Origin: Elusimicrobia bacterium GWA2_61_42
GTDB lineage: Bacteria; Elusimicrobiota; Elusimicrobia; Elusimicrobiales; UBA9959
DNA length: 64,000 nucleotides
NCBI GenBank assembly: GCA_001799615.1
Contig: MGTU01000021.1
Location: 27,268 to 91,267, forward strand
Direction: 5' to 3'
Shown here: positions 7,193 to 45,254 of the stretch, one piece after another
Layout: each line of letters begins with the position of its first letter
Numbering within the stretch: the stretch's first letter is position 1
Made by a program: the position numbers and the translations under genes
The notes under the pieces: generated by a model
Seen by the model: only the letters and a program-made list of their open reading frames with translations
What the model was told of the DNA's origin: nothing
Databases searched by the model: none

Positions 7193-8972
7193 AGTTCTGT
7201 GCGCGGCTCTGGTCTTCCTGGCCGCCTTTTTCGCTTACGCCAACTCTGTAAATCCCACTTTTCATTGGGAGGACGAGTATCTGGTCAGGGACAATGTGCA
7301 TATAAGGCGGCTGACCAACCTGCCCGCCTTTTTCCGCCCCGGCTATATAAACGTGTATGAATCCGGGGCGGGCCACAGGTACAGGCCGCTGCGCACGGTA
7401 ACGCTGGCGCTGGATTACGCGCTCTGGAAGGGGGACCCGCGCGGCTACCACCTCAGCAACGTGCTGCTGAACTGCGGCGCGGCGCTGATGTTCTGGCTTT
7501 TCTGCCTGGCCCTGACCGGCAACGGGCTGCTGGCGCTGCTGGCCGGGCTGCTGTTCGCGCTGCACCCGGCCCACGCGGAGTCCGTGGCCTGGGTTAAGAA
7601 CCGTTCCGACATACTTTGCGCGCTGTTCTACTTCGCCTCGGCCGCGGCTTTCGCTTTTTATGCCCGGCACGGCAAAAAAACCGCGCTGGCCGCCTCGGTC
7701 CTGCTGGCGGCGCCGGCTTTCCTGGCCAAGGAAATGGCCCTTACCCTGCCTTTTGCGCTGGCCCTGGCGCTGGTCTACTCCAACCTGGAGGCCGGCAAGG
7801 ACTGGAAGGAAAAATGGGAGGCTCTTGTGCCGTTCTTCGCCTTGCTGGCCGCCTATGTGGTTTTCAGGGAAACCGCCATGGCCGGCGGCCCGGCCGCGAT
7901 CGGCGCGGGGGCGGCCCCGCTGGCGCGCGCGCAGCTGCTGGCCGTGACGGCCGGGGAATACCTGAAGACGCTGCTGTGGCCGGTCACGCTTTCAATAGAC
8001 AGGGCGCTGCCGTCCGGAGGCGCCGCGGCGCTGCAATACGGCCTGGCGGCCGTTTTTATTGCCGGGGTTCCCGGCCTGTGGTTCTCTGGCCGGCGCAGGG
8101 GCGCCTTCTGGCTGCTGCTTTTCTGGGTGCTGTACGTGCCAATCTCCAACCTGGTGCTTATAGAGGGGCGGCCTTTCGCGGAGCAGCGCCTTTACCTGCC
8201 TTCGGCCGCTTTCTGCGCCTTTATAGCCTGGGCGCTGACCGAGCTGCCCCGGCCCGGCTCCCGCCTGGCGCGTGCCTCCCTCGGTTTCGCCTTGGCGTTG
8301 GGCCTTTTCTGGGGCGCCAGGGGGGCTTACCGCAACCTGGACTGGAAGAGCGAGGTCGGGTTGTGGCAGAAGACGGCGGCCTCAAGCCCGTCGGCGCGCG
8401 TTTACAATAACCTGGCCGTGGCGCTGCTGAGGGAGAACCGCTATGAAGAGGGCATCAGGAACGCGCAGGAGAGCCTGCGCCTGGACCCGGCTTTTGTGGA
8501 CGCGTGGAATACGCTGGGCGCTGGCTACCATGATCTGAAACTGTATGACAGGAGCATTTCGGCTTTTGAAAAGGCCGTTTATTTCTCCGACGGGCGGGCC
8601 TATAAGTCGGTGATGAACCTGGCCGCGCTGTACAGCCTGAAAGGGCGCTGGCAGGAGGCGCTGGCCGCCTATCAAAGCGTGCTGAAGACGGCCCCCTGGA
8701 TGGACGCCGCCTACTATAACATGGGCCTGGCGCTGGCCCAGCAGAAGCGGCCGGACGAGGCTTTGCGCGCCTTCTCAGAGGCTTTGGCGCTGAACCCCTA
8801 CAATGCGCAGGCTTACCTGATGATGGGCCGCATCCTGGACGAGAAAGGAGATAGAGCCGGCGCCGCGCGGGTCTATGCCGACCTGCTCAGGATAGAGCCG
8901 GGCAACCAGCAGGCCTCGGCGTACCTTCAGGCTAACCCGCCAGGCATTGACTCGTCAAGGGCAACCCCTTGA
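7173..8972 (+). CDS. TMTC-like GT-C glycosyltransferase with C-terminal TPRs (copy 3)
   Basis: FHWED, YRPLR, LHPAHAESVAWVKNR, LAKEMA and FAEQRLYLPS motifs, followed by TPRs. Its stop codon lies inside the -35 hexamer of the next promoter. Confidence 0.85.
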   Translation: MKITENKVLCAALVFLAAFFAYANSVNPTFHWEDEYLVRDNVHIRRLTNLPAFFRPGYINVYESGAGHRYRPLRTVTLALDYALWKGDPRGYHLSNVLLNCGAALMFWLFCLALTGNGLLALLAGLLFALHPAHAESVAWVKNRSDILCALFYFASAAAFAFYARHGKKTALAASVLLAAPAFLAKEMALTLPFALALALVYSNLEAGKDWKEKWEALVPFFALLAAYVVFRETAMAGGPAAIGAGAAPLARAQLLAVTAGEYLKTLLWPVTLSIDRALPSGGAAALQYGLAAVFIAGVPGLWFSGRRRGAFWLLLFWVLYVPISNLVLIEGRPFAEQRLYLPSAAFCAFIAWALTELPRPGSRLARASLGFALALGLFWGARGAYRNLDWKSEVGLWQKTAASSPSARVYNNLAVALLRENRYEEGIRNAQESLRLDPAFVDAWNTLGAGYHDLKLYDRSISAFEKAVYFSDGRAYKSVMNLAALYSLKGRWQEALAAYQSVLKTAPWMDAAYYNMGLALAQQKRPDEALRAFSEALALNPYNAQAYLMMGRILDEKGDRAGAARVYADLLRIEPGNQQASAYLQANPPGIDSSRATP

Positions 8973-8996
8973 CAAAGCCGGATCTTCTGCTATAAT
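8947..8996 (+). promoter_or_regulatory. Sigma70 promoter with upstream palindromic operator (copy 1)
   Basis: TTGACA 8969-8974, 16-nt spacer, TGc-TATAAT 8991-8996. Upstream TTGAC-tc-GTCAA (8947-8958) and inverted repeat GTCAAGGG-caac-CCCTTGAC (8954-8973). Confidence 0.8.
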
Positions 8997-9007
8997 ATGA
9001 TTGCAGC

Positions 9008-9165
9008 GCGGTGTGGTTGCGGTGCGGTAGTGTTTGGTTGCGGTGCGGTTGCGGTGCCCCGCTCTTTTGGCGCAGCGTAGTGCGGCGTAGTGCGGTTAAG
9101 TTGCGGTCGCAGACAGACTCGGTGCGGTGTAGGCTGCGCGGTGCAGGTTGGTGACAGCGTGCGGT
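9008..9165 (+). repeat. G/T-rich degenerate (T)GCGGT pentamer array in the 5' leader
   Basis: About 11 GCGGT copies counted by eye, e.g. at 9008, 9019, 9024, 9040, 9045, 9051, 9092, 9103, 9124, 9138 and 9161. Strongly strand-biased and A-poor. Confidence 0.8.
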
Positions 9166-9187
9166 GTTTGTCCCAAAAGAGCGGGGC
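9056..9187. repeat. Perfect 15-bp inverted repeat enclosing 102 nt
   Basis: GCCCCGCTCTTTTGG (9056-9070) and CCAAAAGAGCGGGGC (9173-9187). Confidence 0.9.
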
Positions 9188-9198
9188 GTTTCTTTAAG

Positions 9199-9277
9199 TA
9201 TCCGACAATAGCAAAGCCGGCCAAAGCCGGCGGCGCAAAGCCGAGGGCCCAAGGGGGTTGCCTGGCTGCCGAAGATC
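9199..9277 (+). ncRNA. GEMM-I (c-di-GMP-I class) riboswitch aptamer, A20 variant (candidate 3',3'-cGAMP sensor), copy 1
   Basis: CGACAAT-A-GCAAA, P2 GCCGGC-caaa-GCCGGC, GGCGCAAAGCC junction, P3, and 3' GGCTGCCGAA, matching GEMM-I core motifs. The base equivalent to Vc2 position 20 is A9210. Confidence 0.88.
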
Positions 9278-9280
9278 AAT

Positions 9281-9499
9281 ATGAAAGAGCGGTTCTACGC
9301 CCTCTGTTGCATATTTTTAAGTCCCGTTGCGGCTTGCGCCGTAGCGGCTTTTTTATTGGCTGACAGTTTAAAAATAGTTTTCCCGCTTTGTAACCTTTCC
9401 GTAACATTATTTATATATTATAATAAGATGGCACTGAACGTCCCGGCAATGGAAGGAGCACTCCTGTCTGGTCGTTCGTCGTCGTTTGTAAAAAACTGA
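9281..9499 (+). CDS. Putative leader ORF (72 aa; internal ATG 9428 gives 23 aa) abutting the giant gene
   Basis: Starts 3 nt after the aptamer, spans the terminator and ends TGA directly before the giant-gene ATG, in the same frame. Coding status is uncertain. Confidence 0.35.
   Translation: MKERFYALCCIFLSPVAACAVAAFLLADSLKIVFPLCNLSVTLFIYYNKMALNVPAMEGALLSGRSSSFVKN
9324..9354 (+). terminator. Intrinsic terminator, likely expression platform of riboswitch 1
   Basis: 10-bp stem CCGTTGCGGC-ttgc-GCCGTAGCGG (2 G-U pairs) followed by C and T6. Confidence 0.8.
9389..9421 (+). promoter_or_regulatory. Direct-repeat box TGTAAC-N5-CGTAAC plus -10 element (candidate internal promoter of the giant gene)
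   Basis: GTAAC at 9390 and 9401 (11-bp period). TATTAT 9416-9421 lies 10 nt after the second box; TATAAT also occurs at 9419-9424. Confidence 0.55.
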
Positions 9500-12400
9500 A
9501 TGGCGCTAAAAGGTAAGGATAAAGCGAAAAGTTTTGCGACCCGGCTGGCCCGGGCCGCGGCGCTTTGCTTTTTCTCCCTGACCGCGCTGCTGCTCCCCCA
9601 GGCCGAACTTTACGCCGCCGACTACGAATGGGGCGTGAAATACGCCATGTACGAGCTGCACGGCCGCAACTGGGGGTCCACGGCCGCCAGGACCACCATA
9701 GCTTTCCGCTTCACGGCCAAATACGACGGCACCGTGGACGAAATGAACATGATAGTGGGCCGCGCCCCCAACGCCAACCAGTCCATGCGCATCGGCCTGG
9801 CCTCCTCCCTGGGCGCCAACGCCGGGGCCCAGACCTTCCTGGCCTACGCGGACGTGAACCAGACCGGCGGCAATTCCGGCTACGCCTACTGGCAGGTGCA
9901 GGCCACCAGCGGCACCCCGGTAAACGCCGGCCAGGACTATTACCTGATCATGCGCCCTAACGCCATGACCAGCAACTCGGCCCTTCAGGCCGGCACGATG
10001 TTCGGCTATTCCAACGCCGACACGAAGGACGCGGCCGGCACCAACCTTATCTATCCTGACGGCGTTGCTGACAATAACCTGCAGGTCTATTACTCGAGGA
10101 GCAGCGTGGAGCCCTTCTCCCAGGTGCCCAACGCCATGCCCACCTTCGTCATCCGTTACGCCAACGAGGGGGCGGGCAACAGGTACCAGGGGCAGCCCTA
10201 TGGCGCCTTCCCCGTCAGTTCCGACGAAGCCCTGTCGACGGCAGAAGGCGGTATAAACACCGCCGTGCCCAGCTCTCTGGCGAACGTGCTGACCACCGAG
10301 AGCAATATTTACGGCTGGCGGGGCGTGGGCTATTACTTCACCGCCGACGCCGCTACCAGGAACATCGTAAAGGCCAAGATCTTCCTGCAGAAAGTGGGCA
10401 CCCCGGTGGACAAACTGAATGTGAGGGTGATCCGCGCCGCGCCTCCTTACGCGGTGGTCCTGGACACCACCGTTTACGCCGGGGCGGCGGACATCACCAC
10501 TACCTGGGGCTGGCAGCCGGCGGCCGGCAAATCGTTCCCGGGCGGCGTCTTTACCCCGGGGCTTTCCTATTACGTCTATTTCTTCTCCAGCGGCAGCCTT
10601 AACGGCAACCACTACCGCGTTTCGCTGATGGACCCCAAGGACTACGGCGGCGCCACGGCCGCCGGCGCCAACCTGGTCACCGCCAACGGCACGGCCGACT
10701 ATTACGTGGCCAACGCGGACGTCAGGAATTTCGCCGGCTTCGCCCGTCCTTACGCCAATACCTACGGCGACATCCCCATAGCGCTTACCTGCGACAACGA
10801 CCCGCCCGAAGTGGTGGTCACGCAGCCGCTCAATAACTCGGCGCGCAAGCTCATGGCGCTGATAGAGGGCACGGCCTATGATAATTATTACATCAGGGCC
10901 GGCGGCGTGCAGGTCTCCATCAAGAACATCACCACCACCAAGGTCTGGGACGGCGCCGGCTGGGTGGACGGCGAAGTTAACTGGCGTCCGACCACCGCCT
11001 TCTCGCCCAGCGAAGGGGCCGTCATCAACTGGTCCTACCCGATGACCTGGGTGCACAACAATAAGTACGAGATCAATACCAAGGTTGTGGACAGCGTGGG
11101 CAACTACGAAGGCAGCTGGTCTACCACCACTTTCTTCTTCGACGAGTACAAGCCTCCGCCCAACGAAGTGCCCGATTCCACCATGACCTTCCCGTCCAAC
11201 GGCATCTTCGTCAGCGCGCTCGACACTATCAGTGGCGTCGCGACCGACAACTCGCCCAACGGCAGGATCAGCCTGGTGAAGTGGATGATGTGGAAACTCG
11301 GCTCCTACTGGGGCGACGACAAGCTGTGGCACGCGGGCCTGCCGCCGGCCAACGTGGATACCACGTGGCTTAACTCCGACGACGGCTCCGGCTCCTACAC
11401 GGTGACCTGGCATGAGTACTTCGGCAGCGGCCAGATCCCGGACCCCGGCCAGATGGACACCGGCACCACCTATTATATAGCCGCCAGGGCCGAGGACAGC
11501 GTGGTGGGCCCGACCGGCGCTTACGATAAGAACAAGGAAGTGGTGCGGTCCACGTTCACTTTCTACTGGGACGCGGTGCCGCCCACCTCGGCCATCACCT
11601 ACCCGCAGAACAGCGGCGTGGCCGGCACCTCCCCCGTTTTCTACGGCACTTATTTCGACCAGCACGCCGGGATGTCCCCGGCCAGGGGCGCCGCCGTCAA
11701 GGTAAAACTTTACGACAAGACCGCCCAGCTCTGGTATCACGCCACCGGCTGGGACCCGGACGAGCCCACCCTCCTGGAGATGCCCGAAGCCGCCGTCTGG
11801 GCTTCTTCCTGGACTTATTCCCCGCCGTCCGGGCTGACCGGGGCTCACGAGTACCTGCTGGTGTCGATAGCCAAGGACGCCACGCAGCCCGGCAATTACC
11901 AGAGCAGTTTCGTCCTGGGTACTTCTTCCAATAACTTCGTCTGCGATAACCTGAACCCCGTCACTTCCATAGGCGTCCCCAACACGTCTTTCCGCAACCA
12001 GCTGGTCTCCATATCGGGCGCGGCGCAGGATTACCCGCAGCCCGGGCAGCTGAGCCGGGTGGAGATAGAGATAGTTCACCCGGCCGACACCCCGGCTTTC
12101 GCCTGGTCCGGCACGGCCTGGCTGCCCATTGTCGAGGATAATTTCAGCACCTATACTTATGTTTCAGGCGGCTACCCGACCTGGTCGTATACCCCCGTGG
12201 GCATAGGCTGGACCGAAAGCATCAAGTACCGCGTAAGGGCCAGGGCGCGCGATAACATAGGCAATATAGACCCGCTGTTCACGCTGGGTGTCAACGAGCG
12301 CCAGTTCCGCTATGACGTCTCCTTCCCTACCACAGCGGTCAATGTGCTGGTAGAGGACGGCGTGGAGCTGGCCACCCAGACGGTAAACAAGCTGCACGAC

Positions 12401-45080: not shown

Positions 45081-45130
45081 TTGACATGTCAAGGGGGTGG
45101 CCTTGACAAACCAGTTCTATCTGCTATAAT
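45081..45130 (+). promoter_or_regulatory. Sigma70 promoter with upstream palindromic operator (copy 2)
   Basis: TTGACA 45103-45108, 16-nt spacer, TGc-TATAAT 45125-45130. TTGAC-at-GTCAA 45081-45092 with the same 22-nt offset to the -35 as copy 1. Confidence 0.8.
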
Positions 45131-45171: not shown

Positions 45172-45254
45172 GTTACGATAATAGCAAAGCCGGTGAAAGC
45201 CGGCGGCGCAAAGTCAAGACCCGCTAAGTGAGCGGGGGTCAGACTACCGAAAAC
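45172..45254 (+). ncRNA. GEMM-I riboswitch aptamer, A20 variant (candidate 3',3'-cGAMP sensor), copy 2
   Basis: CGATAAT-A-GCAAA, P2 GCCGGT-GAAA-GCCGGC (GNRA loop), GGCGCAAAGTC, P3 CCGCT/AGCGG, and 3' GACTACCGAAA. The position-20 equivalent is A45183. Confidence 0.88.

Follow-up and report, generated by a model that had tools for sequence, protein, structure and literature searches.

A GCGGU-rich leader domain upstream of a c-di-GMP-I riboswitch and a giant gene in Elusimicrobia bacterium GWA2_61_42

Positions 9003-9187 of the window (the whole 64,000-nt stretch of DNA from Elusimicrobia bacterium GWA2_61_42 that was analysed) very probably encode a selected, structured and genus-specific leader RNA, which forms the 5′ domain of the transcript from the promoter at 8969-8996. 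Four parts make up this domain: a tail of GCGGU words, a 15-bp helix (P1), a compact three-way junction and a U-rich tract after P1. Judged by its sequence, it is a new RNA family outside Rfam. No Rfam family was found for 9003-9187 even at E ≤ 10, barring a chance-level match to sRNA P4 (17 bits versus a gathering score of 37), nor did the elements of relatives match any Rfam family, and nothing relevant was found in the literature on Elusimicrobia riboswitches and the GGC variant. The parts of the domain and its neighbours are the following.

8948-8959 (no strand assigned): 12-bp palindrome TTGACTCGTCAA, operator-like, 10 nt upstream of the -35 hexamer
8969-8996 (+): consensus sigma-70 promoter TTGACA-16-TATAAT with TG extension, 12 of 12 hexamer matches
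9003-9055 (+): free 5′ tail with tandem (U)GCGGU / GYRGU words, six of them exact GCGGU
9056-9070 (+): 5′ arm of P1, GCCCCGCUCUUUUGG, pairing with 9173-9187
9071-9102 (+): J1/2 region with further words, variable in length and sequence in the alignments
9103-9111 (+): near-invariant GCGGUCGC-A, the 3′ arm of the tentative helix P2 plus one junction nucleotide
9112-9172 (+): P3 hairpin, 9112-9125 pairing with 9159-9172, apical part 9126-9158 variable
9173-9187 (+): 3′ arm of P1, CCAAAAGAGCGGGGC
9188-9199 (+): U-rich tract GUUUCUUUAAGU directly 3′ of P1, a terminator-like end
9200-9273 (+): c-di-GMP-I riboswitch aptamer (Rfam RF01051), a neighbour outside the new domain
9324-9354 (+): intrinsic terminator of the riboswitch platform, a 10-bp stem followed by a U run
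9389-9424 (+): promoter-like element, TGTAAC/CGTAAC direct repeats in 11-bp phase, then TATAAT

Genomic setting and distribution

The transcript presumably starts near position 9003, and the motif TTGACAA..ATCTGCTATAAT is kept in all 30 orthologous loci. The aptamer downstream of the domain matched RF01051 with 58.8 bits (gathering score 35). With permissive filters, the variant model c-di-GMP-I-GGC matched positions 9200-9274 with 54.3 bits (gathering score 59), and given these two scores the ligand specificity of the aptamer may merit attention. A second c-di-GMP-I aptamer was found by Rfam at 45173-45251 of the window and a third one on another contig. The leader of riboswitch 2, located before a porV-like gene, has the same promoter type. 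As stated in a preliminary description of this DNA, it carries no comparable insert: only about 35 nt lie between promoter and aptamer, and a GCGGT array is absent. A palindrome similar to TTGACTCGTCAA, namely TTGACATGTCAA, is located upstream of the riboswitch-2 promoter at 45081-45092.

The terminator of riboswitch 1 sits inside a leader ORF (9281-9499), which encodes the terminator hairpin and whose TGA directly precedes the ATG of the giant gene in the same frame; its peptide (M-K/E-K/E-R-F...AVAAxAVAAFLL) is kept in the short-platform clade. The giant ORF of 11,824 codons begins at 9500. Between the riboswitch terminator and the start of this gene lies the promoter-like element (TGTAAC at 9389-9394, CGTAAC at 9400-9405 and TATAAT at 9419-9424). 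It is retained by 26 of 30 species and resembles a second promoter that depends on an activator of the response-regulator type. In most species of the genus a longer platform follows aptamer 1 (loci L033-L049, e.g., L034:1740-1840). It is a conserved hairpin domain of about 100 nt (GGCCGUUUCCGCUGUCUUCGGGGUAU...AGCGGAAACGGCC) plus a U run, for which no Rfam match was obtained, and a short ORF with a Shine-Dalgarno site is located after the hairpin domain.

BLAST searches against relatives unveiled that the leader is conserved genus-wide, and all 20 loci that were fetched included promoter, 3-13 GCGGT words, helix and aptamer. The search for similar leaders by a covariance model, which the preliminary description had suggested, was carried out with a model built on the element core and yielded one copy in 35 of the 43 genomes of the genus. 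No copy was detected in 12 other genera of the family, in which weak matches comprised helix arms only, or outside the genus in a phylum sample of 401 genomes from 122 genera, in which likewise only arm-level matches occurred. As the leader is present in 35 independent assemblies, the feature is neither due to chance nor an assembly artefact, and the concern raised at the outset that it might be such an artefact or might be missing from orthologous leaders is settled.

In orthologous leaders the aptamer always comes immediately after the domain. Other species also have giant genes behind the leader, with a 12,824-codon frame in genome G020 and more than 6,278 codons in G024, and the distance between riboswitches 1 and 2 amounts to 35-53 kb in about ten genomes. 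The N-terminal domain of the giant protein is common to only three of 29 other species, and the leader is therefore better conserved than the start of the gene. A diverged second copy exists in two species, G013 (L065, G013:C108) and G002 (L066, G002:C237). There, promoter and element are followed by a U-rich tract and, about 20 nt further on, by a canonical terminator, while the aptamer is absent and the invariant CGCAGACAGAC is lacking. In G013 this terminator is homologous to that of riboswitch 1. The paralogue precedes a gene of 611-616 aa, taken as FliF/FliG-like from its N-terminal sequence alone. The element is thus tied neither to gene length nor to the riboswitch.

Fold of the domain and origin of P1

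The strands GCCCCGCTCTTTTGG (9056-9070) and CCAAAAGAGCGGGGC (9173-9187) can form a long-range helix of 15 perfect base pairs, as had been claimed, whereas the longest long-range inverted repeat in 300 shuffled sequences had a mean length of 6.5 bp and a maximum of 12 bp. The distance from the end of P1 to the aptamer, previously given as about 10 nt, is 12 nt. In an alignment of 17 sequences all cells of P1 are paired, compared to 36-64% pairing in slid controls. Five compensatory pairs were counted on alignment A2 and six on alignment A1, the two-sided changes being C-G to U-A, U-A to A-U and U-A to C-G. Template switching at quasi-palindromes could yield some of such "compensatory" changes without selection.

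Minimum-free-energy folds of 30 orthologues showed a recurring three-way junction. The whole 197 nt are predicted to fold with -87.6 kcal/mol, which is a modest gain over shuffled sequences (z = -2.1), and the extreme 5′ end is predicted to be weakly structured. In the segment 9103-9111, 17 sequences share an unchanged central GGUCGC, and the first two bases are at least 90% conserved. P2 would be formed by two copies of the wobble-palindromic word GCGGUCGY. As it is paired to 85% and covariation is absent, this helix is tentative. The strands of P3 (GACA-G-ACGC-G-GUGC and GCGC-G-GUGU-G-UGUC) form three 4-bp blocks between G.G mismatches, which are kept in 27 and 25 of 30 sequences, respectively; in this window the first mismatch site is G.U instead of G.G. 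P3 is paired to 94% on alignment A2, and at its position 13 a G-C to A-U exchange was found in four species.

Two other readings of the conserved segments were considered and rejected. The invariant CGCAGACAGAC does not qualify as a single-stranded binding site: according to the fold model it is structural and runs from the end of P2 over a single junction A into the 5′ strand of P3. A pairing of the 5′ arm of P1 with AAAGAGCGG (9284-9292, past the aptamer, encoding codons K-E-R of the leader ORF) is perfect in the window and lost in relatives.

A terminator-like site was flagged at the U tract after P1 (9188-9199). P1, with its 10 G-C pairs, is followed by GUUUCUUU, which corresponds to the stem and the U tract of an intrinsic terminator. 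The compact hairpin of such terminators is not found, with P1 enclosing 102 nt and a three-way junction. At least five U within the first nine nt past P1 are present in 24 of 30 species and absent in the remaining six.

The arm GCCCCGCCCTTTTGG of P1 is identical to the arms of 85-nt dispersed elements in the genera g16, g17 and g13 (GCCCCGCCCTTTTGG / CCAAAAG(G/A)GCGGGGC). These elements have an interior of about 55 nt, which is constant in length and hypervariable in sequence, and two g16 genomes contain 15-21 matches each. The loci in question (L067, L070-L085) are REPIN-like, but their arms are not themselves palindromes. A homology between leader and dispersed repeats beyond the arms was rejected. 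Interior identity is at chance level, and homology is therefore claimed for the arms alone. The shared 15-mer arms suggest that the domain probably began as a dispersed repeat, one palindromic element having reached fixation in this leader prior to the radiation of the genus and having then been filled with GCGGU by slippage. If so, a dispersed palindromic repeat would have been turned into a conserved regulatory RNA domain. Repeats of the REPIN, MITE and ERIC type are known to be transcribed along with genes and to influence the fate of the mRNA. The leader resembles them in that its P1 arms are the 15-nt arms of a multi-copy 85-nt family, and it differs in being a single orthologous copy per genome with an enlarged, conserved interior. 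No target-site duplication was seen at the leader element. The own genome contains no other paired copy of the element, of which one or two per genome were counted across the genus. It does contain about 60 other perfect inverted repeats of the long-range type, with arms of 13 bp or more and spanning 70-220 nt (e.g., C13:18655-18795 and C4:189239-189382). Arms such as GGTTTTGCTAACCCGG recur among them, and the genome is therefore rich in palindromic interspersed elements.

The GCGGU words and a family of A-poor RNAs

The pentamer GCGGT occurs 11 times on the + strand between 9008 and 9165 (starts at 9008, 9019, 9024, 9040, 9045, 9051, 9092, 9103, 9124, 9138 and 9161), in line with the about 11 copies described before. 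In 300 dinucleotide-preserving shuffles of 9003-9187, on average 1.6 copies would be expected and the maximum was six. No other 160-nt window of the 2.95-Mb genome contains more than six copies. Tandem Repeats Finder reported periods of 5 and 11 for the array. The earlier characterization of this RNA as G/U-rich and A-poor and of the array as partly looped out by the helix is likewise borne out: 9003-9187 contains only 10.8% A, with 21.1% C, 43.8% G and 24.3% T, and six of the 11 pentamers are located 5′ of the P1 helix and five within it. A triple tandem of GCGGT turned out to be uninformative as a genome-wide marker, because the reversed control pattern is about equally frequent; its frequency most likely derives from Gly-codon repeats.

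In the leaders of 30 species GCGGU is 15-16 times more frequent than expected from composition, with main spacings of 5 and 6 nt. Each element contains 3-14 exact copies (median 8) and 8-25 copies of GYRGY, and the orthologous leaders contain 18-21% C and 45-47% G. The 5′ tail varies between 14 and 168 nt among these species. Even the nearest relative, with 86% identity, has a tail of 21 nt versus 53 nt in the window, which suggests that the copy number of GCGGU drifts fast while the word itself is retained.

Partial BLAST matches to the array led to units of about 400 nt, which have their own promoter and a strong terminator, are adenine-poor and contain variable GCGGU/UCGGU arrays. The own genome has three such A-poor units (C9:50579, 63310 and 64138), and further ones are found in relatives and in one sister genus. 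Their signature 14-mer was detected in five of 13 genera, with the control pattern being near zero, and no Rfam family was found for them. Promoter and palindrome of these RNA genes are of the same type as those of the leader, the palindrome TTGACAAGTCAA (TTGAC-NN-GTCAA type) being the -35 of the three A-poor RNA genes. The occurrence of this palindrome type at both riboswitch promoters and at these three -35 elements suggests one shared regulator.

Among known systems, the array is most readily compared with leaders that present repeated protein-binding words. In the trp leader of Bacillus, 11 (G/U)AG triplets at distances of 2-3 nt wrap around the 11-mer ring of TRAP and thereby decide between antiterminator and terminator. 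The domain described here shares with it about 11 short words, spaced 5-6 nt apart, in a 5′ leader that precedes an intrinsic terminator, and a word that remains constant while the spacers vary. Yet the word is GCGGU/GYRGU and not GAG/UAG, the spacing is irregular past short runs, half of the words lie in a junction closed by a 15-bp helix and the organism belongs to another phylum. Measured against the 9-11 (G/U)AG triplets with 2-3 nt separation of a TRAP attenuator, 9003-9187 contains only five GAG/TAG, which are irregularly placed. In Csr/Rsm systems, GGA motifs occur in mRNA leaders and, in many copies, in sponge RNAs such as CsrB and RsmZ. Similarly, the GCGGU word is found in an mRNA leader and is repeated in multi-copy non-coding RNAs of about 400 nt with strong promoters and terminators of their own. 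Different from Csr/Rsm, GGA is absent from 9003-9187 (about one per orthologous element), and the words are partly paired instead of being presented in hairpin loops. In the 95%-complete genome, neither PF02081 (TRAP, MtrB, TrpBP) nor PF02599 (CsrA) yielded a match, with the B. subtilis control for the former and the controls for the latter being positive. By analogy the element may work like such word-array leaders, but it belongs to neither the TRAP nor the Csr class. The idea of a multivalent protein-binding platform in the preliminary description hence survives as an analogy, based on the enrichment and the regular spacing of the word, but not in the form of a TRAP or CsrA target.

Two structured modules in series, one of them a known riboswitch, are also found in tandem leaders with independent terminators, such as the SAM-I and AdoCbl riboswitches on metE, and in EutX/Rli55, where a riboswitch gates a protein-sponge RNA. 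The terminator-like end of the upstream module fits with the tandem leaders, from which the domain differs by matching no known aptamer. In EutX the riboswitch is located upstream of the sponge, and the order is reversed here.

Possible functions of the domain

From the observed sequence, its conservation, covariation and distribution and the words shared with other RNAs, we infer transcription of the domain, a binder and an outcome of binding. A tentative but plausible reading, drawn by analogy, is that of a multivalent docking module with a terminator-like end, the occupancy of which would set the fate of the transcript before the riboswitch. A putative trans-acting factor would recognise the GCGGU words of the leader, and the A-poor RNAs of about 400 nt would compete with the leader for this factor, as CsrB does with the targets of CsrA. 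Depending on the occupancy of the leader, the transcript would, prior to synthesis of the aptamer, either stop or be cut at P1 and the U tract or continue into the c-di-GMP riboswitch, and the operon of the giant gene would thereby read two signals in series. If true, the c-di-GMP riboswitch would be preceded by a second control module, which has its word in common with abundant small RNAs, and a Csr-like titration circuit with a different word, fold and binder would operate in a phylum that lacks a genetic system. This reading is consistent with an array that is enriched and unique in the genome, with the same words in the A-poor RNA family, with the consensus promoter upstream and the aptamer downstream, with P1 and P3 being conserved with covariation, with the presence of a single copy in 35 of the 43 genomes and with an aptamer-less paralogue followed by a terminator in two species. 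Against it stands that many words are paired in P2 and P3 and not displayed, so the excess of words is partly structural. Moreover, tails of 53 and 21 nt in close relatives fit neutral slippage equally well, the fold is only modestly better than that of shuffled sequences (z = -2.1) and a hairpin with a branched "loop" of about 100 nt is unusual for an intrinsic terminator.

RRM proteins were considered as co-occurring binder and rejected in that role. They occur in 12 of 13 genera without tracking the element and are therefore non-discriminating, so an RRM protein is only a candidate. Two small RRM-domain proteins, one with an RGG-rich tail, are encoded in the own genome (C20:51553-51931 and C10:38128-38337, both on the - strand). 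Most genomes of the genus have two or three RRM genes and most sister genera one.

An extension of the docking reading would regard GCGGU as the code of a family-specific post-transcriptional network, in which the A-poor RNAs and the leader compete for one partner, perhaps an RRM protein with an RGG tail, or interact through RNA-RNA duplexes of GCGGU with GCGGU and periodic G.G. This appears rather unlikely. If such a network existed, the 35-kb adhesin-like gene would be gated jointly by a titration circuit and c-di-GMP. Even on a more modest reading, the domain constitutes a new RNA family, well supported by covariation and suitable for submission to Rfam.

Besides the docking reading, a purely cis-acting structural module without any partner deserves consideration as a doubtful but serious alternative. 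Such a module would shield the 5′ end of an mRNA with a long lifetime, prevent the loading of Rho in the untranslated leader of about 500 nt or clamp the G-rich tract against misfolding of the aptamer. The conserved, covarying helices P1 and P3, the C-poor and G-rich composition of the orthologous leaders, which is the opposite of a rut site, and the invariable position directly 5′ of the aptamer are all in agreement with this. A module of this kind does, however, explain neither the retention of GCGGU in the unpaired 5′ tail nor the recurrence of these word arrays in an RNA family that is unrelated; also little structure is predicted for the extreme 5′ end and the porV riboswitch works without the domain.

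The terminator-like end raises a further explanation, i.e., that the domain is a tandem small RNA gene, from which most transcripts end at P1 and the U tract as a trans-acting RNA of about 185 nt and only read-through transcripts would reach the riboswitch. The U tract that 24 of 30 species have behind the GC-rich helix of 15 bp, the promoter and palindrome type common to the A-poor RNA genes and the aptamer-less paralogue with its own terminator fit with it. As this paralogue still has a canonical terminator about 20 nt further on, P1 with the U tract appears to be inefficient, however; the U tract is missing in six of 30 species, and a branched insert of 100 nt is atypical for a terminator hairpin. 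This explanation is therefore regarded as improbable. The same degree of doubt applies to the domain being a largely neutral relic of a stranded palindromic mobile element and a slippage-prone pentamer microsatellite. The identity of the P1 arms with a dispersed repeat that reaches 15-21 copies per genome in a sister genus, a word number that ranges from 3 to 14 and differs between close relatives and the roughly 60 other long-range inverted repeats of the genome speak for such a relic. Yet 35 species have the domain as one orthologous copy, substitutions have left P1 perfectly paired in every sequence and the core of the three-way junction is invariant or nearly so with conserved G.G positions, whereas decay as fast as that of the flanking spacer would be expected of a neutral insert.

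Slightly less credible still is an orphan ligand-sensing aptamer, which together with the c-di-GMP-I aptamer behind it would form a tandem with two-input logic. An aptamer would fit with the near-invariant nucleotides that surround the three-way junction and with the location of the element directly before an expression platform and, in the paralogue, alone before a terminator. However, there are almost no unpaired conserved junction nucleotides for a pocket, the arms are of low complexity and variable length, the paralogue lacks the invariant segment at the junction and the element is confined to a single genus.

That the domain serves to load a processive antitermination complex (of the ops/RfaH, LoaP, put or EAR type), so that the 35-kb gene can be transcribed in full, had been put forward in the preliminary description and is very unlikely. 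The giant size of the gene is compatible with it, and TGCGGTAGTGTT at 9023, the best site in the window, fits eight of the 10 fixed bases of the ops 12-mer, which we take to be GGCGGTAGnnTG. However, the core GCGGTAG resembling ops occurs in only 10 of 30 leaders and at varying positions. The proposed look for NusG paralogues revealed a single NGN-domain gene (C22:781-1092, a 187-aa frame) and no RfaH, LoaP or UpxY in the 95%-complete genome, and no antitermination RNA of Rfam was matched. As the terminator of the riboswitch comes after the array, it would be overridden by an antitermination complex loaded there, and polymerases starting at the second promoter-like site after this terminator would never see the array. 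A paralogue before a gene of only 611 aa in two species does also not fit. The idea that giant genes of this type rely on an ops-like antitermination site is thereby corrected. Two further ideas were rejected as well. The segment GUUGCGGU in the array resembles the 5′ arm of the riboswitch terminator, which would allow array words to act as antiterminators against its 3′ arm. This was dismissed because only the short-platform clade shows the resemblance and because the 5′ arm, being adjacent, would be kinetically favoured. A boxA-like reading of GUUUCUUUAAG was given up in view of its non-conserved sequence.

An array of two-tier G-quadruplexes in the RNA or the non-template DNA strand, also proposed earlier in view of the many GG runs at 3-4 nt separation, is hardly credible, as orthologues have GCAGU or GUAGU in place of GCGGU and the Gs of P1 and P3 are located in conserved helices with at least one covarying pair each. 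P3 is reminiscent of the hairpins of CGG-type repeats, in which a G-rich repeat pairs with itself, as it consists of 4 bp, G.G, 4 bp, G.G and 4 bp. It differs from them by a period of 5 nt, not 3, and by short, imperfect repeats in what would be a bacterial cis-regulatory context. If this likeness holds, P3 would be an example of natural RNA helices that are made from pentamer repeats with regular G.G mismatches.
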